Origin: a virus
DNA length: 5,691 nt
IMG/VR virus record: IMGVR_UViG_3300045988_000107
Location: 1-5,691 of that record
Strand: one strand, 5' to 3'
This document shows, piece by piece, positions 1 through 5,691 of this stretch. Made by a program: the position numbers and the translations under genes. Position 1 is the stretch's first letter. Every line of letters starts with the position of its first letter. The notes under the pieces were generated by a model. The model was not told the origin of the DNA, did not search any database, and saw nothing but the letters and a program-made list of their open reading frames with translations.

Positions 1-77
1 TACGGCTTTTCTTAAGTCGTTGATGGTTGCTGCGGTTACTGCTCCTAGATTTGCGCCTAAGTATGCCGTGTCTGCGG
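1..77. repeat. Terminal direct repeat, left copy (circular-closure overlap)
   Basis: The 77 nt TACGGCTTTTCTTAAG...CCGTGTCTGCGG are identical to 5615..5691, compared base by base. They lie inside the VP1 reading frame. Confidence 0.97.
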
Positions 78-936
78 TTGACCCTCCCGGCAGTGTGACA
101 CCTACTGCTGTGCTTGATCTGTCTCCGTTGTTGCTGTTTTGAATTCCTGCTCTCGCTTGCGTGTTGAAGAAGATTTCCGTTTTGTTGAGTGCCGTTCCAA
201 ATATTGTGAGCTTTTCGTCTTTGTATAAGCCGACAGGTGCATTACCTTCCATCGGCAGTGTTACTGCCGGCCCGCGCTGAGGATAAGGCATACAGCTTGT
301 GAAGTAGTCGTGAAATTTGTTTACAGGTAACAGGTTTCCGCCTCTGTACGCGTTGTTTTCCGCTGTCTGCACCTCATTTTCGTCTCCAAATCCGTATTCT
401 ACGCTTGCATCGTCTGTTTTTAATACTGCTGCGTTATCTACGTTTTCATCTCTGAAAAATTCATTCCAGATTTTTACATACGCTCTTATGGGTAGTGCGT
501 TAATGCTAAATCCTTTTTTAATTTTGGTCGGTACTCCCATATAGTCTAGTATTGATCTTTCGTGTGGTTTTGGTTCTGCATCCGTTCCTTTGATATTGAT
601 TTTCGGTACTGTGTATTCTTTTTTTGGCATCCATGGCGTTTCTTCTACTTCTCCCATGAAGTATTTGAAGTTGTCCCACAGAATTCTGTTAGGACAATAG
701 AAGTAGTAGAAGTCAATGAATGCATCGTCCATCACCGGATACTTCGGTGTGCTCATTCGAATGATTGCTGCTGTATTTACGTTGAAGGTATCGCCCGGTA
801 ATACCTCGTCAACATAAAATGGAATCAGCTTGCCGGAATCGAACGTTGTTAAAATTGTCTGGTCGCGGCTGAACCGCGTTCGACTTGCTTTCATTTCCGG
901 AATCTGGTTAAAGTGTCTTTCGTTGTTTCGATTCAC
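1..936 (-). CDS. VP1: Major capsid protein VP1 (Microviridae), 5-prime part: start codon plus first 312 codons. The gene crosses the circular junction and continues from 5614 down to 4898.
   Basis: I translated all 312 minus-strand codons from GTG at 936..934 to base 1 and found no stop. AGGAGG lies 7 nt upstream of the GTG. An in-frame stop at 957..955 leaves no upstream ATG. The downstream ATG at 894 has no SD and would remove conserved residues. Product starts MNRNNERHFNQIPEMKASRTRFSRDQTILTTFDSGKLIPFYVDEVLPGDTFNVNTAAIIRMSTPKYPVMDDAFIDFYYFYCPNRILWDNF, which matches the conserved microvirus capsid N-terminal signature (TTF..G.LIP....EVLPGDTF). It is absent from the ORF track because it runs off the window edge. 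Confidence 0.92.
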   Translation of the reverse strand, partial: MNRNNERHFNQIPEMKASRTRFSRDQTILTTFDSGKLIPFYVDEVLPGDTFNVNTAAIIRMSTPKYPVMDDAFIDFYYFYCPNRILWDNFKYFMGEVEETPWMPKKEYTVPKINIKGTDAEPKPHERSILDYMGVPTKIKKGFSINALPIRAYVKIWNEFFRDENVDNAAVLKTDDASVEYGFGDENEVQTAENNAYRGGNLLPVNKFHDYFTSCMPYPQRGPAVTLPMEGNAPVGLYKDEKLTIFGTALNKTEIFFNTQARAGIQNSNNGDRSSTAVGVTLPGGSTADTAYLGANLGAVTAATINDLRKAV

Positions 937-938
937 TT

Positions 939-1331
939 TTATTCCTCCTTTGCTTCAGGTTCTGTTTTTGGTTCTGCTGCTGCCATTTTTTGCATTTCTT
1001 CAAGTTTCATGGCGTTTGCCTGTGCGGTCGCTACCATACGATGATACTCGTGAATGTTCTGCGGAAATTCTGTAATATCTGTGTATGTATCGTTTAATGC
1101 TCCTTCCGACAGATTTTTCAGAAACTGCGGGTCAAAACTTGCTTTTCGGACAATGCTTTTGATATCGCACTCATCCGCATAGCTTTCAATTTCCTGTTGG
1201 ATGTCGATTGGTGCAGTTTCTTGCAGTACTTCTTTTCCTTTTTCGTCCTTTGTCCAAACGTATTGTTTTTGCTCTTTTTCTCCCGGGTTAGAAAAGAAGG
1301 GCTTTCGCCCTTCTTCGTATCGTTTATTCAT
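939..1331 (-). CDS. VP3: Internal scaffolding protein VP3 (gokushovirus type), 130 aa
   Basis: Track ORF. GGGAGGG lies 8 nt upstream of the ATG. It sits immediately upstream of VP1; its TAA stop is 2 nt before the VP1 GTG. The protein is acidic, and its DECDIKSIVRK segment matches the (D/E)ECDIN.I..K motif I recall from gokushovirus VP3 scaffolds. Its start overlaps the preceding gene by 8 nt. Confidence 0.7.
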   Translation of the reverse strand: MNKRYEEGRKPFFSNPGEKEQKQYVWTKDEKGKEVLQETAPIDIQQEIESYADECDIKSIVRKASFDPQFLKNLSEGALNDTYTDITEFPQNIHEYHRMVATAQANAMKLEEMQKMAAAEPKTEPEAKEE

Positions 1332-1563
1332 CCGCTTTACCCTCCCATGCCTTATCGTTCATGTTCTGGAATTCGCCGGTTTCATCTTCAAACGTTGCCA
1401 GTTTATAGCCTACGTAATCGTTCGGGGACTGCCCGATGAACGTGCTCTTGTCTTTCTGCATCACGTTGCACATCCGTGCGAACGTTTCGTTGTTTTTGCT
1501 TTCACCTACCCATGCATAACATTTTGCTACCTTGTCGTAGATGCCGTAGTAACTGTGAGTCAT
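1324..1563 (-). CDS. VP5: VP5/ORF5-like small nonstructural protein (gokushovirus type), 79 aa
   Basis: Track ORF. AGGAG lies 8 nt upstream of the ATG. The pattern IYDKVAKCY...NNETFARM...SPNDYVGYKLATFEDETGEF resembles the (I/V)YD.VA..(F/Y)...N...A.R.F...P.D(Y/F).LY.(I/L)G.FD..TG pattern I recall for gokushovirus ORF5 proteins. Position upstream of VP3 is typical. The assignment is from memory and not searched. Confidence 0.55.
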   Translation of the reverse strand: MTHSYYGIYDKVAKCYAWVGESKNNETFARMCNVMQKDKSTFIGQSPNDYVGYKLATFEDETGEFQNMNDKAWEGKADE

Positions 1564-1580
1564 TTTTTTTCTCCTTTCTC

Positions 1581-1703
1581 TTAGAGCCTGATTCCGCCAC
1601 GCATAGGTTTTTGGCTGAGGTTGATAGTTTTCGTCTTTCGTGCGGTTACGTTGAACATGCGGCGGTCTTTTGCGCCGCTCATCTTCTTACGATGTTGTGC
1701 CAT
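1581..1703 (-). CDS. ORF8: Small basic DNA-binding protein (gokushovirus ORF8, functional analogue of phiX174 J), 40 aa
   Basis: Not in the ORF track (too short); found by hand translation. ATG at 1703..1701, AAGGGAG 8 nt upstream, in-frame stop upstream at 1721..1719, TAA at 1583..1581. Product MAQHRKKMSGAKDRRMFNVTARKTKTINLSQKPMRGGIRL has 12 Lys/Arg in 40 residues. It ends in the PMRGGIR(L/F) C-terminal signature of gokushovirus ORF8 proteins. It overlaps the upstream 75-aa ORF by 17 nt. An alternative internal start at 1682 would give 33 aa. Confidence 0.75.
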   Translation of the reverse strand: MAQHRKKMSGAKDRRMFNVTARKTKTINLSQKPMRGGIRL

Positions 1704-1914
1704 CGTTGTACTCCCTTCTCATTAGTTCCATTTCGATTGCGTTTGCAAAGTCTTTCATCTGCCATATTTCATCTAGCAGTTTCTTTGCATCTTCAATATT
1801 GGATACTTTGCGTAACATTTTGTATTCTTTATCGATTTCTTTATATTTTCGATTGATCAGTTCTTCCAATGCGTCTGTGGTGCTGTCTCTGACATTCCAG
1901 CTTGTCCTTGTCAT
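1687..1914 (-). CDS. Hypothetical protein, 75 aa, charged and predicted helical, no recognisable family
   Basis: Track ORF. AGGAG lies 6 nt upstream of the ATG, inside the end of the preceding 40-aa ORF (GAAAAGGAGTAAAAAATG). Packing is tight on both sides. Sequence is rich in K/E/D heptad-like segments (EELINRKYKEIDKEYKMLRK). No transmembrane stretch and no motif I recognise. Confidence 0.6.
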   Translation of the reverse strand: MTRTSWNVRDSTTDALEELINRKYKEIDKEYKMLRKVSNIEDAKKLLDEIWQMKDFANAIEMELMRREYNDGTTS

Positions 1915-1917
1915 TTT

Positions 1918-2040
1918 TTACTCCTTTTCTTTTTCGTTGATGCTATCGTGCAGTGCATGATAGATTTCGTCAAGCTTTTCAAGGATGTCCATCATGAGAC
2001 GGATTGCCTGTTTGACGTCCTTAATCGAAATAAGTGCCAT
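1918..2040 (-). CDS. Hypothetical small protein, 40 aa, amphipathic and helical-looking
   Basis: Not in the ORF track; found by hand translation. The ATG at 2040..2038 starts 2 nt after the peptidase TAA (2044..2042). AGGGGG lies 6 nt upstream. TAA at 1920..1918 lies 3 nt before the next ATG (1914). Product MALISIKDVKQAIRLMMDILEKLDEIYHALHDSINEKEKE. It exactly fills the gap between two supported genes, which argues for coding, but it is short and has no recognisable homology. Confidence 0.45.
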   Translation of the reverse strand: MALISIKDVKQAIRLMMDILEKLDEIYHALHDSINEKEKE

Positions 2041-2041
2041 G

Positions 2042-2431
2042 TTATACCCCCTTTCTGTAGGTTTTGGTACGCGTGTCAATGTGTACCCATGTTTTGTACA
2101 CGATGATGCCGCAGCCAGACGGAATGATTTTGTTTAGTTTGTTGGCAATTTCTTTTGCGGTCATGCCTTCAATCCGAATGTCTGCCGCCATTCCTCGCAT
2201 GTGGTATGAGTACTTTGCACCGCCTACTTCTTTATTCCTTGGTGGGGTCCTGTATCCGCTGTTTATGTATACCGGCCTTCCGACTTGGTTTCTAAGGATA
2301 TCCAGGATTGATACTAAATAGCTATCGATGAATACGACTTGCGAACCATCTTTGCACGCAAATTCTCGCACTTTAAAGTGCTGCCCTACTTTTTCGTTTG
2401 CGTCTGTGTCCATTATGTAGCTTTTAATCAT
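2042..2431 (-). CDS. Zinc D,D-/L,D-peptidase of the M15 family (Peptidase_M15_3 / M15A-like), a putative peptidoglycan hydrolase (endolysin), 129 aa
   Basis: Track ORF 2042..2440 begins at a TTG. I prefer the in-frame ATG at 2431..2429, with AGAAAGG 9 nt upstream and abutting the TTG. Motifs: FKVREFACKDG, NSGYRTPPRNKEVGGAKYSYHMRGMAADI (H-x6-D zinc ligands) and WVHIDTR (third His ligand). This is the layout of M15-type cell-wall peptidases found in many phage endolysins. No N-terminal signal peptide or transmembrane segment is visible. Confidence 0.85.
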   Translation of the reverse strand: MIKSYIMDTDANEKVGQHFKVREFACKDGSQVVFIDSYLVSILDILRNQVGRPVYINSGYRTPPRNKEVGGAKYSYHMRGMAADIRIEGMTAKEIANKLNKIIPSGCGIIVYKTWVHIDTRTKTYRKGV

Positions 2432-2440
2432 TTTTGTCAA
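2412..2440 (-). promoter_or_regulatory. Candidate sigma70-type promoter P2 overlapping the first codons of the peptidase gene
   Basis: Minus strand has TTGACA (2440..2435, 6/6), a 17-nt spacer, then CATAAT (2417..2412, 5/6). This is the best consensus match I found in the window. The predicted start near 2405 lies downstream of the peptidase start codons. Promoters inside upstream genes are normal in phiX174-type microviruses. Confidence 0.35.
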
Positions 2441-2456
2441 CCTTTCTCTCGATTCT

Positions 2457-2485
2457 ATTCTACCCTATGTCAATAGCCTTTTCAA
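2457..2485 (-). promoter_or_regulatory. Candidate sigma70-type promoter P1 upstream of the peptidase gene
   Basis: Minus strand has TTGAAA (2485..2480), a 17-nt spacer, then TAGAAT (2462..2457). The predicted start near 2450..2449 would give a short leader containing the AGAAAGG SD of the peptidase gene. Each hexamer matches consensus at 5/6. A match of this quality is expected by chance about once in a window this size, so the support comes mainly from its position. Confidence 0.35.
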
Positions 2486-2678
2486 TATTTTTTGAGGATT
2501 GTAATAATTTGTAACTTTTTTCCTGCTCCTTTGTTTTGAGTGGCGCTTTAGCGCCTTGCCGTATGGAGCGCAGCGGAATGCGGCTTAATCCATTCCTTTT
2601 TAGCGCTGTGCGCGTTTTCAACACTTTCAACACTTTCAACAGGTTTTCCACAAAATGTTGTACAATGATTTTCGTCAT
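2460..2678 (-). CDS. Doubtful ORF, 72 aa, lying in the noncoding region; probably not a gene
   Basis: Track ORF. It is the only minus-strand ORF without a convincing SD (GAAAG at best). Its ATG sits in the loop of the CGTCA-TTT-TGACG palindrome. Its N-terminal VENLLKVLKVLK is the translation of the TTTCAACA iterons, which also occur outside the ORF. It spans GC-rich hairpins, and its TAG overlaps a candidate -10 box. Listed only for completeness. Confidence 0.2.
   Translation of the reverse strand: MTKIIVQHFVENLLKVLKVLKTRTALKRNGLSRIPLRSIRQGAKAPLKTKEQEKSYKLLQSSKNIEKAIDIG
2542..2613. other. Cluster of GC-rich stem-loops in the noncoding region
   Basis: Three elements. GGCGC-TTTA-GCGCC at 2542..2555. 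GGAATG-CGGCTTAATC-CATTCC at 2575..2596. An enclosing stem GCGCAGCG (2568..2575) with CGCTGTGCGC (2604..2613) that has a 2-nt bulge and shares base 2575 with the inner stem, so the two cannot both form at full length. Read directly; no energy calculation was possible. Confidence 0.5.
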
Positions 2679-2790
2679 TTTGACGAACTTTCAACATTTC
2701 AACAAGTTTTCAACAAAACTTTCAACAGTGTATTTCTCTTTTAATTTTCGTTTCATCGTTAAAATTTATTACTTTTCAACTTTTCCACAG
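2615..2790 (+). repeat. Iteron array: about ten same-orientation copies of T3-4C(A/C)ACA in three clusters
   Basis: Perfect TTTCAACA starts at 2616, 2625, 2634 (cluster A) and 2689, 2697, 2708, 2720 (cluster B). TTTTCCACA is at 2644..2652 and 2781..2789. TTTTCAAC is at 2773..2780 (cluster C). Higher-order 22-nt repeat: 2634..2655 TTTCAACAGGTTTTCCACAAAA versus 2697..2718 TTTCAACAAGTTTTCAACAAAA (20/22). A related TTTTCAATA lies at 2479..2487. Confidence 0.9.
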
Positions 2791-2793
2791 CCT

Positions 2794-2808
2794 CTACTAC
2801 TACTACTA
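2794..2808. repeat. Trinucleotide microsatellite (CTA)5, reading (TAG)5 on the coding strand
   Basis: CTACTACTACTACTA read directly from the sequence. It lies between iteron cluster C and the AT-rich/GC-rich element. Confidence 0.9.
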
Positions 2809-2822
2809 CAACAAGTTAATAT

Positions 2823-2876
2823 TATATCGCGCGTGCGCGCGTGCGCGCTATCGCGCGTGTGCGCATGTGCGTTATA
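2823..2876. repeat. Tandem pair of about 24-nt alternating pyrimidine-G tracts, forming an imperfect palindrome flanked by TATAT/TTATA
   Basis: Unit 1 at 2828..2851 is CGCGCGTGCGCGCGTGCGCGCTAT. Unit 2 at 2852..2875 is CGCGCGTGTGCGCATGTGCGTTAT. They share 20/24 identity as direct repeats. Each contains a 21-nt perfectly alternating Py-Pu run (2828..2848 and 2852..2872). It is by far the most GC-rich patch in an otherwise AT-rich noncoding region. Confidence 0.9.
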
Positions 2877-2885
2877 GATTATTTG

Positions 2886-2903
2886 ATAGACTGAATAGAC
2901 TGA
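2886..2903. repeat. Perfect tandem 9-mer ATAGACTGA x2
   Basis: ATAGACTGA occurs at 2886..2894 and 2895..2903. A partial third copy, ATAGATTA, is at 2874..2881. Confidence 0.85.
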
Positions 2904-2927
2904 TACATGGAGCCTTTAGGCGACAAA

Positions 2928-2959
2928 AGCCCAGTACCTTACTTGATAGGTACTGGGCT
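2928..2959 (-). terminator. Candidate intrinsic terminator downstream of VP4 (end of the single transcription unit)
   Basis: On the minus strand, starting 12 nt after the VP4 TAA: AGCCCAGTACC, loop TATCAAGTAA, GGTACTGGGCT. This is a perfect 11-bp stem with a 10-nt loop, followed by TTTGTCGCC. The T-run is short (CTTTTG counting the last stem base). The T-run exists only in the minus orientation. Confidence 0.5.
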
Positions 2960-2970
2960 AGGTGACACCG

Positions 2971-3990
2971 TTAGAGTGTCCCCCTCTTCTTCATCTGCTT
3001 CTTTATCACCCTTTCTTTTGTCTCGCATTGTTCTGCAAAGTTTGCGTTTTCATACTTTAGCCTGTTTTCTGCTATGACTGCTGCTTGTCTGTTTTGCTTA
3101 ATTCTCCACAATCTTTGTGGGTTTTCGGCTTCCATCATCTTTTCATAATAACGTGGAATTTGTGCGTGTTTTCCGTTTGTACATTGGATGTATCCTTGTC
3201 TCCATATCTCTTCCTTGTGCTCTTGGTAATAGTGGTCTCCCAGTCCCGGTTTTAGGCTCATACATGCGAATGGTTTTTGTTGGCCTAATTCGTAGTATTT
3301 GTTTGCTTTTTTCCCGTCTATTTCGTACATTTTTTTTGTGACGTATCCTGCAACATATCTGTATGTTTCTGGAACTGCTTGTGCTATCTGTATTTGACCC
3401 ATGCCCCATATGTTTTCTAGCCATTGACTTGTGAAGTATCCGTTGTGATGGATTTTATACAGGTTTTCAAGGTCTGTTGGTTTCCATCCATATAGAATCA
3501 TGTGGTAGTGTGGTCTTGCTGTCTGTTCTCCATACTCTCCTGCTACAAAATAGCGTAATTTGCCCTTGTAAGCCTTCCTGAGACGTTTTAGAAACTTTTG
3601 AATGTCTGGAAACAGTAACGTTTGGACGCTTTCTGGGCGTTTCTCTCCTGGCTTCCAGACGTATTGTACTTTTCGCATGATTTCGCCTGTTTTGAGTATC
3701 ATTCCTGGTACGTGTTCGTCATTATAAGTTAGTGTAATAAACCATACTTCTTCTCTTGGATAGTCTCGTGCTTCTAATTCTATACGTGTTGTCCAGTCCT
3801 CTCTCTGTCTTATTCTGCATCCGATGCACTGCCCGCATGGTATCAGCATTACATCTTTTCTAAACATCAAATCTTCATATTTTAGCTGTTTTCCCACTAA
3901 CTGAGAATAGCGGGAGAGTGAGTACACCCTCCCGCTAATGTTTTTGTCGTTAGGGTTGTACAGCCTTATTAATGGCTTGTAACAACTCAT
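2971..3990 (-). CDS. VP4: Replication initiation protein VP4 (rolling-circle HUH endonuclease, phiX174 gpA superfamily), 339 aa
   Basis: Track ORF. AGGTGA lies 9 nt upstream. The ATG overlaps the VP2 stop as ATGA. Motifs: PCGQCIGCRIRQREDW (Cys cluster typical of gokushovirus VP4), WFITLTY (motif 1), RPHYHMILYG (HUH motif 2) and RYVAGYVTKK (motif 3, two Tyr three residues apart as in phiX174 gpA). Stop TAA at 2973..2971. Confidence 0.93.
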   Translation of the reverse strand: MSCYKPLIRLYNPNDKNISGRVYSLSRYSQLVGKQLKYEDLMFRKDVMLIPCGQCIGCRIRQREDWTTRIELEARDYPREEVWFITLTYNDEHVPGMILKTGEIMRKVQYVWKPGEKRPESVQTLLFPDIQKFLKRLRKAYKGKLRYFVAGEYGEQTARPHYHMILYGWKPTDLENLYKIHHNGYFTSQWLENIWGMGQIQIAQAVPETYRYVAGYVTKKMYEIDGKKANKYYELGQQKPFACMSLKPGLGDHYYQEHKEEIWRQGYIQCTNGKHAQIPRYYEKMMEAENPQRLWRIKQNRQAAVIAENRLKYENANFAEQCETKERVIKKQMKKRGTL

Positions 3991-4859
3991 CTTAAGTAAT
4001 CACCTGGCCTTCTTTTTTCTCCGTAGGACCCTGTTTTGTTCTGAGGCGCTTGATAGTTGTTCTTTTGGTCGCCCCTTTTTGTGTCGCTCTTTTTTGGTAC
4101 GTTTTTGTCAATGGCTTCGCCTGTGTCGTCTCCAATTTCGGTTAGCGTTTTCTGCAGTCCGTATGGACTCATGTGTGTACTGCTGAGCATTTGCTGCCAA
4201 CTTTGTGCCGCATTGAACCAGTCGCTTTTACTCCAACTGCTGCTTTCGTATGCGTTAGGTACAAATCCTCCGCTTCGGCTTACTCCTAGTGCACTGCTGC
4301 TTGCAAGTCCCATACTTGCTCCACTGATTGTTCCTGCACTTCCTCCCGGTGTGCTTGCGCCGCCGTTTGCGAATGCTAAGATAGGGTTAAGCCCTGCTTT
4401 TTTCATGTCCTCAACGGCTCGCTGGTACGCTGTGCTAGACATGTGTTCTTGCCATTCACGGTTTGCTAGGGCTTCTGCGCTGTTGTAGTTCATGGCAGTG
4501 CTGTTTTCAATGTGGTTATATACGCCTTGCATAATTGACTGTAATGTATTGTAACCCATCTGTTTTAGCATACTTTGGCTGTTGTACTTGGCTTGCATGG
4601 CGCTTTCTTGCCCTTGATATGCATATGCCTGTTTTAGCCATTCATCAACCTGTTGTACGTTGGTACCCGATTGGCTTCCGCTTTCGGAGTGTCCGCCGCC
4701 CTGGCTTGTGCTGCCGCCGCTACTTTGGCTATTGCCTGTCTGCCCCCATCCGCCAAACGCTCCAGCTACGTTTTTAGCTGCTCCTGCAAAATTTCCGATT
4801 GTGCTTGCTACGTTTCCCGCTACGTTTAGTGCTGTTAAGAGCCCAGATAATCCACTCAT
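3987..4859 (-). CDS. VP2: Minor capsid / DNA pilot protein VP2, 290 aa
   Basis: Track ORF. The central segment NSAEALANREWQEHMSSTAYQRAVEDMKKAGLNPILAFANGGASTPGG matches the conserved gokushovirus VP2 core (..ERMSNTAYQRA.EDMKKAGLNP.LA..). It sits directly downstream of VP1, as is typical. The N-terminus is Gly/Ala-rich and is followed by a Gly/Ser/Gln low-complexity linker. Confidence 0.9.
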   Translation of the reverse strand: MSGLSGLLTALNVAGNVASTIGNFAGAAKNVAGAFGGWGQTGNSQSSGGSTSQGGGHSESGSQSGTNVQQVDEWLKQAYAYQGQESAMQAKYNSQSMLKQMGYNTLQSIMQGVYNHIENSTAMNYNSAEALANREWQEHMSSTAYQRAVEDMKKAGLNPILAFANGGASTPGGSAGTISGASMGLASSSALGVSRSGGFVPNAYESSSWSKSDWFNAAQSWQQMLSSTHMSPYGLQKTLTEIGDDTGEAIDKNVPKKSDTKRGDQKNNYQAPQNKTGSYGEKRRPGDYLR

Positions 4860-4860
4860 T

Positions 4861-4887
4861 TAAAAATAGCCCGGATTTCTCCGGGCT
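4861..4887 (-). terminator. Candidate partial terminator (attenuator) hairpin between VP1 and VP2
   Basis: The minus strand between the VP1 TAA (4900..4898) and the VP2 ATG (4859) reads GAAAGGAGGA-AGCCCGG-AGAAAT-CCGGGCT-ATTTTTAA-ATG. This gives a 7-bp GC-rich stem (4887..4868) with a 6-nt loop, followed by ATTTTT. Confidence 0.5.
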
Positions 4888-4897
4888 TCCTCCTTTC

Positions 4898-5691
4898 TTA
4901 CAGCTTGTACAAGCCCGGTACGCTGTACAACGGCATCCGTCTTGTCGTTTTGTTTGCTACGCGGATAGCTCCGAAAAATTGCGGCTCATTCTCCACGATG
5001 AGTGTTCGCGCAATTTCGTTTTTGCTTTCTTGCATCCAGCCTTGCGATAGTGTTGGTACGGTTGAATAATTGTCTGCGTAGTGCCAGAAATCTAACGTTC
5101 CTGTTGCGTTGCTTCGCATGAGGCCGCTTACCCGGTTTGGTTTCATTCGGTAGTCCGCCCAGGCCTCCTGGTAGCCGAACGTTTCTTCGTCCGTTGTATT
5201 GCCGGTCAACATGATTTCCTTTTTCTTTACGGGCTGTTCGCCTAGATTTGCAAACTGCGGTACATAGTAGTCCAGTCTGTCTTTTCGGCTCCAGAAACGC
5301 TCCAAGCCCTGCTGATAACTGCGATTGTGTCGCACACAACAGACACCAATTACAAACCCATGCTCTTCAAAAGATTTGGTAAAAGAGCTTTCGTTTATCG
5401 GCGTCACTGACATTGCACCAGTTTCGCCCAGCGATGACTTATCGTTTTCCGCTGTCTGCACGATTTGGTTGATATTGATGTGATATCTTCCGCCGCCCAG
5501 GTATTCTGGAATCTGTACCGTTTTGTCGCTGATAGTTACATTCCACAGTGCTTGTACCTGTTCGCGGTATCGGCTGCCGCCTCGTGCGAGCGCTTCGTAG
5601 TACTGCTGTACTGCTACGGCTTTTCTTAAGTCGTTGATGGTTGCTGCGGTTACTGCTCCTAGATTTGCGCCTAAGTATGCCGTGTCTGCGG
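4898..5691 (-). CDS. VP1: Major capsid protein VP1, 3-prime part. Same gene as 1..936; bases 5615..5691 duplicate 1..77.
   Basis: The frame is continuous with 1..936 across the junction (position 1 equals 5615; 936 nt is exactly 312 codons). Hand translation upstream of track ORF 4898..5461 is open to the window end: ...TAATINDLRKAVAVQQYYEALARGGSRYREQVQALWNVTISDKTVQIPEYLGGGRYHININQIVQTAEND... This carries the conserved capsid motifs INDLR, ARGG.RY and PEYLGG. The M shown at 5461 in the track is an internal GTG (Val). Stop is TAA at 4900..4898. The whole gene is 1653 nt, 550 aa, on the 5614-nt circle. Confidence 0.92.
   Translation of the reverse strand, partial: ADTAYLGANLGAVTAATINDLRKAVAVQQYYEALARGGSRYREQVQALWNVTISDKTVQIPEYLGGGRYHININQIVQTAENDKSSLGETGAMSVTPINESSFTKSFEEHGFVIGVCCVRHNRSYQQGLERFWSRKDRLDYYVPQFANLGEQPVKKKEIMLTGNTTDEETFGYQEAWADYRMKPNRVSGLMRSNATGTLDFWHYADNYSTVPTLSQGWMQESKNEIARTLIVENEPQFFGAIRVANKTTRRMPLYSVPGLYKL
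5615..5691. repeat. Terminal direct repeat, right copy (circular-closure overlap)
   Basis: Identical to 1..77. The unique genome length is therefore 5614 nt. Confidence 0.97.

Follow-up and report, generated by a model that had tools for sequence, protein, structure and literature searches.

A probable host-type DnaA unwinding module in the non-coding region of gut gokushoviruses

The window analysed here is a whole stretch of 5,691 nt (positions 1 to 5,691 of IMG/VR record IMGVR_UViG_3300045988_000107), made up of the circular genome of a gut gokushovirus (Microviridae) of 5,614 nt and a 77-nt terminal direct repeat (1–77 and 5615–5691). Its sole large non-coding region (2441–2970, 530 nt) carries an array of short direct repeats. 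We find it probable that these repeats are DnaA-binding sites and that, together with the sequence to their right, they form a copy of the basal unwinding system (BUS) of bacterial replication origins. Comparison of sequences establishes that the repeated motif is identical to that of host origins, that the architecture is the same, that it is conserved, that canonical boxes interchange with it and that it is independent of the phage initiator VP4. From these comparisons we infer the binding of DnaA, the opening of the duplex and the consequences of that opening.

The replication of Microviridae is known from phiX174, which relies on an HUH initiator, on a nick site and on primosome signals of the host. 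Within our incomplete coverage of the literature, we found no report that ties Microviridae or gokushoviruses to DnaA boxes, DnaA-trios or oriC. The conservation of a complete DnaA unwinding module in a widespread clade of mammalian-gut gokushoviruses would imply that these phages depend on the host initiator or manipulate it.

Results

Ten boxes in one orientation lead into a box–trio unit

The 8-mer TTTCAACA is present seven times on the + strand and nowhere else in the window (starts in Table 1), when 0.34 copies are expected by chance and seven copies were reached in 0 of 200 shuffles. Three one-mismatch variants (TTTCCACA at 2645 and 2782, TTTCAACT at 2774) complete an array of ten boxes, all in the same orientation and grouped in three clusters. 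The segments 2634–2655 and 2697–2718 form a 22-nt higher-order repeat, with 20 of 22 positions identical. A preliminary description of this DNA had reported the seven perfect copies, the three variants, their clustering and common orientation and the higher-order repeat, all of which our counts bear out. It was also right that the 9-mer TTTTCCACA (2644–2652 and 2781–2789) fits the DnaA-box consensus TTWTNCACA and that TTTTCAACA (2615–2623 and 2707–2715) is one position off. This consensus is of the relaxed E. coli type and is matched by only 2 of the 10 window copies.

In a basal unwinding system, one or two DnaA boxes are followed by a GC-rich spacer of about 4 bp and by three or more DnaA-trios of the consensus 3'-GAT-5', the first of which is no more than 16 bp away from the best box (PMC8287927). 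The boxes are 5' of the CTA strand, which in Bacillus reads 5'-CTACTATTACTTCTACTA-3' and doubles as the element recognised by DnaD (PMC10201434), and the trio sequence of C. difficile is 5'-CACCTACTACTATTACTACTATGA-3' (PMC7561715). In the window, the order is TTTCAACT-TTTCCACA-GCCT-(CTA)5-CAACAAGTTAATATTATA. Written with the full 9-mers (TTTTCAACT/TTTTCCACA-GCCT-(CTA)5-CAACAAGTTAATATTATA), the segment 2773–2826 has the tandem boxes, the spacer and the trios of a BUS, and the distal box ends 12 nt before the first trio. The (CTA)5 run represents five DnaA-trios (3'-GAT-5') on the - strand and repeats of the DnaD-recognition type, TnnT, on the + strand. Its polarity agrees with that of B. subtilis (5'-CTACTATTACTTCTACTA-3', with the distal end 3') and with that of the host origins described below. 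The box–spacer–trio pattern was found in 0 of 20,000 Markov-simulated genomes.

Neither the (CTA)5 run nor the 18-mer with 83% A+T that follows it had been noticed in the preliminary description, which likened boxes beside the AT-rich segment 2731–2773 to the layout of a chromosomal origin. The composition of that segment is as claimed (81.4% A+T, for an estimate of about 80%), but conservation within the module is lowest there, and the position of the unwinding element is occupied by 2809–2826 instead. In many relatives the AT-rich spacer between clusters B and C takes the form of an imperfect hairpin or palindrome whose stem sequence differs. These spacer hairpins form around a conserved ACGTTAA, with z values down to -7.7 (in L004 and L029) and of -1.1 in the window.

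The box type is that of dnaA–dnaN origins in gut Clostridia

We scanned 185,579 species genomes for three copies of TTTCAACA with gaps within 14 nt. At least 120 loci hold such triples, and in 12 of the loci listed the cluster is between dnaA and dnaN, an interval that a random 8-kb segment of a genome of about 3 Mb is estimated to span with a chance of about 0.3%. Pfam confirmed DnaA and the beta clamp at two of these 12 loci. The organisms named among the loci listed include uncultured gut Oscillospiraceae, Ruminococcus, Eubacteriales and Clostridia. Across nine dnaA–dnaN regions, TTTCAACA is the commonest 8-mer, with 71 copies (and 13 more inverted) against a single copy of the canonical TTATCCACA. 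Set beside the oriC boxes of candidate hosts, the phage motif is therefore the dnaA–dnaN origin box type of gut Clostridia (Oscillospiraceae, Ruminococcus).

The resemblance extends to the trios. Origins beside dnaN read TTTCAACAgTTTCAACAcccc(CTA)5aacatatatac in L219, TTTCCACAgTTTCAACAtacc(CTA)5actatatac in L225 and acTTTTCAACTTTTTCCGGCTCC(CTA)4ctgttaaaatatatcgc in L280, and the dnaA–dnaN region of L244 is identical to window positions 2776–2807 at 29 of 32 nucleotides, from the end of the distal box through the proximal box and the spacer to the trios. The host spacers between box and trios are CCCC, GCCC or TACC. Box spacing peaks at 9 and 11 nt in phage and host alike, and the proximal boxes are 8 nt apart in the window, L244 and L280, and 9 nt apart in L219. 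Boxes of the TTTCAACA type with trios are also found beyond the Clostridia, in L266 (Mesoaciditoga), L214 (Anaerolineae) and L259 (Chloroflexota). Judging from these loci, (N)TTTCAACA is a variant that fills the slot of the DnaA box and is spread over several phyla. The DnaA proteins encoded beside such origins share the DNA-binding signature RDHST(I/V)VY (8 of 8: L219, L225, L243, L244, L258, L280, L288 and L308), where the solved proteins of E. coli, B. subtilis and Aquifex instead carry RDHTTV(I/L)HA. When aligned by eye, the DnaA of L244, L219 and L280 are without the proline that corresponds to E. coli P423. The altered signature may underlie the altered box.

We considered direct capture of the module from a host origin and rejected it, because blastn of the non-coding region against the host loci returned motif stretches of 19–33 nt and no extended homology. 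For a phage group without a bacterial host named in its GenBank records, the motif points to Oscillospiraceae/Ruminococcus-type Clostridia as hosts. It also suggests that origins built from (N)TTTCAACA boxes would be under-scored by standard origin finders, which are keyed to TTATCCACA.

Boxes, trios and AT-rich stretch are conserved as VP4 diverges

To quantify conservation, we used the column identity to the window of 66 unique relatives or versions. The box columns are 95.5% conserved, the trios 93% and the AT-rich stretch after the trios 96%, against 77.7% for the other columns, and 0 of 214 circular shifts of the column labels reached this difference. Cluster A, whose triple is also present in host oriC regions, has columns conserved at 90–100%. 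The box–spacer–trio unit is seen in 65 of the 66 relatives, and L003 has a degenerate trio run (CTATTACTACTCCTA). Array and flanks are kept nearly base for base in KX513868, KT264791, MG945334 and MG945233, even where extra cassettes of open reading frames (ORFs) intervene before the endolysin gene. The clade's GenBank genomes come from the faeces of human, pig and rhesus hosts, and the hosts listed also include mink and raccoon. In IMG/VR, the triple repeat is present on at least 119 contigs, and there are 230 relatives of VP4. The array is kept at VP4 identities of 86–96%, 78–82% and 54% (the last in an IMG/VR clade), with the same 8-mer throughout.

Where the sites do change, they change towards canonical DnaA boxes. 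The rhesus virus L201 has TTTTCCACA or TTTTTCACA at the homologous sites and thereby matches TTWTNCACA five times. Seven unique genomes of the clade with 54% VP4 identity have a perfect caacaagTTATCCACAaaa, its orientation unchanged, at the site homologous to caacaagTTTTCAACAaaa of the window (2707–2715), so that the canonical TTATCCACA stands at this homologous site in seven relatives. The E. coli consensus itself is poorly kept: an automated survey found no match to TTWTNCACA in 29 of 92 relatives (5 mis-oriented blocks and 1 chimeric contig are included among the 29). The conserved unit is therefore the host-type box and not the E. coli consensus, and the remaining window copies, described earlier as having two mismatches, are poor DnaA boxes only by the latter standard.

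Four outgroup microviruses with related VP4 and VP5 (VP4 30–38% identical) have neither a box cluster nor a box–trio unit, from which we conclude that the module is a clade-specific acquisition. We also looked for canonical-box versions in other microviruses by scanning IMG/VR for TTATCCACA-N(2–16)-CTACTACTA. This gave 84 matches, of which those on microvirus-sized contigs have a single box, are mostly inside long ORFs and look like chance. The large IMG/VR contigs with triple TTTCAACA were set aside as well, as they mostly resemble in-frame coding tandem repeats.

The whole module has been inverted in one lineage

In five distinct IMG/VR genomes (L008, e.g., at 4210–4430, L011, L033, L039 and L058), the segment corresponding to about 2615–2826 is inverted relative to VP4, the hairpin that follows VP4, the GC tract, the GC hairpins of 2520–2612 and the promoter. 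All three box clusters, together with spacer, trios and AT-rich stretch, are turned as one block, which is bounded by quasi-palindromic GC runs: GCGCTGTGCGCG at one end, (CGCGCGTG)n at the other. In the tree of the segment, the inverted copies group as one clade, and in the tree of VP4 they are scattered. This pattern points to one ancient inversion with later recombination between VP4 and the non-coding block, and not to an inversion switch that recurs in the manner of phase variation.

Since the unit is inverted in a lineage that is viable and has diversified, the module seems to be self-contained and to work in either orientation to the genes and the hairpin. This argues against a tight cooperation with the hairpin 120 nt away and in favour of an autonomous function. 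It also makes a strand-specific signal on the packaged DNA, or an array of promoters, unlikely.

Discussion

How the module might act

Most likely the array is bound by host DnaA, which the comparisons support well, and is opened by it. ATP-DnaA would fill the ten boxes on the double-stranded replicative form, where, at a spacing of 8–12 nt, adjacent boxes are separated by about one turn of the helix. It would then oligomerise from the proximal pair along the 5'-TAG-3' trio strand (the - strand) and open the duplex at 2794–2826. The opening would expose the + strand with its TnnT repeats, which in Bacillus are recognised by DnaD. As the consequence we favour the loading of a helicase, which would allow the replicative form to be replicated or maintained independently of VP4. 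Opening could alternatively help VP4, and the module could drain the host pool of DnaA or place transcription under DnaA-dependent control. That trios and AT-rich stretch form a complete unit favours opening over titration alone.

In its strongest form, which we put forward tentatively and regard as less likely than the binding and opening themselves, the replicative form would be a minichromosome of the oriC type: DnaA would fire the module, the host helicase would be loaded and theta replication would proceed with the host cell cycle and without VP4, rolling-circle replication being reserved for the single strands of the progeny. Such a phage would have a plasmid-like carrier state without integration, in a virus family described as "strictly lytic", and its mimicry of an origin would be a readable signature of the host for uncultured phages.

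Several points weigh against the interpretation as a DnaA unwinding module. A phage that replicates by rolling circle has no obvious need for a second origin of the DnaA type. The AT-rich stretch after the trios has only 18 nt and is directly followed by a GC-rich tract (its counterpart in the clade with 54% VP4 identity has about 30 nt). The 8-nt spacing of the proximal boxes departs from that of L219, although L244 and L280 share it. The host loci were picked by the motif, so that its presence there is built in; its position between dnaA and dnaN and the adjacency of the trios were not imposed. The taxon distribution of TTTCAACA origins is incomplete, being drawn from the loci listed. Finally, we infer from position and geometry that DnaA, and not another origin-binding protein, reads TTTCAACA, and we assign the phage's host from the motif alone.

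Comparison with known systems

The closest known system is the BUS of oriC, as in the DnaA-boxes 6 and 7 of B. subtilis with their trios and in oriC2 of C. difficile (PMC8287927, PMC6669920, PMC7561715). Like it, the phage module has a pair of tandem boxes, a spacer of about 4 nt rich in GC, three or more 3'-GAT-5' trios and same-orientation boxes upstream, and it is near-identical to the dnaA–dnaN versions of Oscillospiraceae and Ruminococcus; the AT-rich DNA past its trios is a candidate counterpart of the unwinding region. Unlike it, the phage module is in a 5.6-kb single-stranded DNA (ssDNA) phage that encodes a rolling-circle initiator, has no adjoining dnaA or dnaN, has an AT-rich stretch that is short and GC-capped, has ten boxes that all point one way, and is known here from sequence.

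Among plasmid and phage replicons, P1 oriR, pSC101, F, R6K and RK2 use the host DnaA through boxes in their origins. These origins centre on an initiator of their own with its iterons, and the canonical DnaA boxes, one to a few in number, are helpers. In the phage, by contrast, the boxes themselves are the iterons, no theta initiator of the Rep type is encoded and a trio element is present. The direct repeats near a hairpin beside the gene of an HUH initiator recall the nic/bind region of pMV158 and the iterons of CRESS-DNA viruses. Those repeats co-vary with the initiator, whereas the phage repeat is constant across 54–100% VP4 identity. phiX174 has a 30-nt origin inside gene A and a primosome assembly site, and the "A site" of R6K and pBR322 serves DnaA-dependent priming on ssDNA. 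Unlike these sites, the phage module has no box-bearing hairpin, is outside any gene and tolerates inversion. E. coli datA is a cluster of DnaA boxes outside oriC that titrates DnaA; it has no trios or unwinding unit, unlike the phage module.

Alternative readings

Recruitment or titration of host DnaA by the array had already been proposed in the preliminary description. The host-origin box type, the interchange with canonical boxes and the box–trio–AT unit speak for this proposal. Three specifics are not supported: an unwinding role for the tract at 2731–2773, the assembly of a DnaA-dependent primosome on ssDNA, and a low quality of most of the boxes, which applies only by the E. coli consensus. 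Titration or regulation without the firing of an origin, with a DnaA sink like E. coli datA or with DnaA as a transcription factor, is the rival that survives best, and we think it unlikely. A sink on the multicopy replicative form would lower free DnaA and disturb host initiation, and the transcription-factor variant would tie phage expression to the replication state of the host. All of the evidence for DnaA binding holds equally for this rival, which can also point to ten same-orientation boxes on a multicopy molecule and to their place 130–330 nt upstream of the sole good promoter-like site. It requires only the boxes, however, and the GC spacer, the five trios and the AT-rich 18-mer are strictly conserved at the geometry of unwinding. 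Moreover, the inverted lineage changes both the distance and the orientation to the promoter.

We consider it improbable that the repeats are iterons for a phage protein, either VP4 (by analogy with "bind" of pMV158 and the CRESS-DNA virus iterons) or VP5, which matches a PHROG annotated as a DNA-binding protein. The direct repeats are indeed 140–310 nt from a conserved hairpin beside the VP4 gene, and VP4 and the non-coding block are co-inherited in some recombinants (GenBank matches H13–H17). Yet the 8-mer is identical where VP4 is only 54% identical and does not co-vary with the initiator, which disfavours the phage-protein hypothesis of the preliminary description. The 8-mer is also the box motif of cellular origins and is swapped for canonical DnaA boxes in relatives, the trios have no place in an iteron model, and the four outgroups with related VP4 and VP5 have no array.

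Recognition by another host regulator is more doubtful still. One candidate is Spo0A, whose box TGTCGAA is one base from the TGTTGAA of the array (- strand). Boxes for Spo0A and for DnaA overlap in the origin of Bacillus, and the phage phi29 pauses during sporulation by means of Spo0A boxes. The C of the consensus is absent at that position in every window copy, however, the variants in relatives shift toward TTATCCACA and not toward TTCGACA, and in host origins the motif fills the slot of the DnaA box beside trios. We give equally little credence to a signal for complementary-strand synthesis on the packaged strand, such as a DnaA-dependent primosome on a box-bearing hairpin. In the common orientation, the gene-sense strand (presumably the packaged one) does have the DnaA-binding trio strand 5' of the boxes. 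The fold of the module on the - strand is not significant, though (z = -1.66), with the boxes mostly unpaired; the boxes are all in one orientation, with no inverted copies, so they cannot pair with one another; and the inverted lineage would package the complementary sequence and has nonetheless persisted and diversified. For the same reasons (no significant single-strand structure, and inversion in a viable lineage) the ssDNA primosome of the preliminary description is not upheld.

Least credible is the reading in which the downstream genes are driven by arrayed promoters or -35-like elements: TGTTGAAA contains TTGAAA and one weak promoter-like match falls inside the array (2694→2665, 9/12), but 9 of the 10 copies have no -10 partner and the copies of the inverted lineage face away from the genes. 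The related copy TTTCAATA (2480–2487) does overlap the -35 of the - strand promoter-like TTGAAA-17-TAGAAT, as had been described. Both the inverted lineage and the lack of -10 elements to match speak against the operator or -35 array. A known structured RNA was rejected, since on either strand Rfam gave 0 matches with E <= 1. A dif/XerCD-like reading of CAACAAGTTAATATTATAT-CGCGCG was dropped after comparison by eye, as the arms match poorly.

Other features of the window and its relatives

The closest GenBank records are human and pig gut gokushoviruses, at about 83% identity. Every gene is on the - strand of the window (Table 1). In the gene-sense strand, which we take to be the packaged strand from what is generally known of Microviridae, the non-coding region is downstream of VP4 and upstream of the endolysin gene.

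Table 1. Genes and non-coding features of the window, in window coordinates.
Feature	Position	Strand	Remarks
VP1	wraps window ends	-	
VP2	3987–4859	-	
VP4, HUH rolling-circle replication initiator	2971–3990	-	PF23343, 6e-17
Peptidase M15 endolysin	2042–2440	-	
Further genes: three small ORFs, VP5, VP3 scaffold protein		-	
Promoter-like TTGAAA-17-TAGAAT	2457–2485	-	upstream of peptidase M15 gene
GCGCTGTGCGCG	2603–2614		left boundary of the unit inverted in one lineage
DnaA-box cluster A (putative)	2616–2652	+	TTTCAACA at 2616–2623, 2625–2632, 2634–2641; TTTCCACA at 2645–2652; spacing 9, 9, 11 nt
Conserved element between clusters A and B	2653–2688	+	small palindrome CGTCA-TTT-TGACG
DnaA-box cluster B (putative)	2689–2727	+	TTTCAACA at 2689, 2697, 2708, 2720; spacing 8, 11, 12 nt
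Variable AT-rich spacer	2728–2772		81% A+T; least conserved part of the module
Tandem trio-proximal boxes (putative)	2773–2789	+	TTTTCAACT 2773–2781, TTTTCCACA 2781–2789; present in relatives
GC-rich 4-nt spacer GCCT	2790–2793	+	between proximal box and trios
(CTA)5, putative DnaA-trio element	2794–2808	+	4 nt past the last box
AT-rich 18-mer CAACAAGTTAATATTATA, candidate unwinding element	2809–2826	+	83% A+T; 96% conserved
(CGCGCGTG)n alternating purine–pyrimidine GC tract	2825–2875		right boundary of the inverted unit
Hairpin, 12-bp stem, 8-nt loop	2928–2959		12 nt past the VP4 stop; outside the inverted unit; z = -4.4

The palindrome between clusters A and B is replaced in the distant clade by a different one, TGCACAAA-GGT-TTTGTGCA. 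The (CGCGCGTG)n tract is present in all relatives, with variable length and sequence, and could be prone to form Z-DNA or a cruciform. The loop of the hairpin past VP4 has the same 8 nt in nearly all relatives examined, and its stem shows a compensatory change in L008, from C:G to A:T. On the + strand, which is the antisense strand here, the loop reads ACTTGATA, which is also the 8-mer around the nick site of phiX174. A similar second copy, TTATTTGATAG, is at 2879–2889. The hairpin is a candidate for a rolling-circle nick site or a terminator.

The GC-rich block at 2520–2612 has small hairpins on the - strand (GGCGC-TTTA-GCGCC and GGAATG…CATTCC) and is oriented alike to the genes whichever way the module points. 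Other hairpins, including GGCGC-GGT-GCGCC, are in its place in the clade with 54% VP4 identity. The fold of the region 2518–2614 is not significant (z = -0.98). The block may be an origin for the complementary strand. Between the conserved non-coding block and the endolysin gene, three relatives have 1–3 extra small ORFs (L001 4060–4480, L002 1540–1900 and L004 4140–4560), each with its own promoter-like TTGACA…TATAAT, and the insertion site looks like a hotspot for accessory genes. In L055 (4100–6500), the microvirus sequence ends about 50 nt past the hairpin that follows VP4 (at about 4110) and is continued by genes of a tailed phage (Mu F-like, portal, terminase); this contig is probably a chimeric assembly.

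Similar arrays were seen on larger contigs. L166 (IMG/VR 3300000304_000005, a 126-kb viral contig) has ten GTTTTCAACAG repeats at 6518–6650, with no trios adjoining, in a strongly A/C-skewed stretch of more than 2 kb without any ORF of at least 100 aa on this large phage-like contig; Pfam finds nothing in the neighbouring ORFs. Canonical units of the form TTATCCACA-TTATCCACA-gccc-(CTA)3+, followed by AT-rich DNA, are found on many large "viral" contigs of 9–160 kb in IMG/VR (including L324, L336, L338, L348, L386, L388 and L401); the stretches retrieved show no dnaA signature. Such units may be origins of phages or phage-plasmids, or bacterial contamination.

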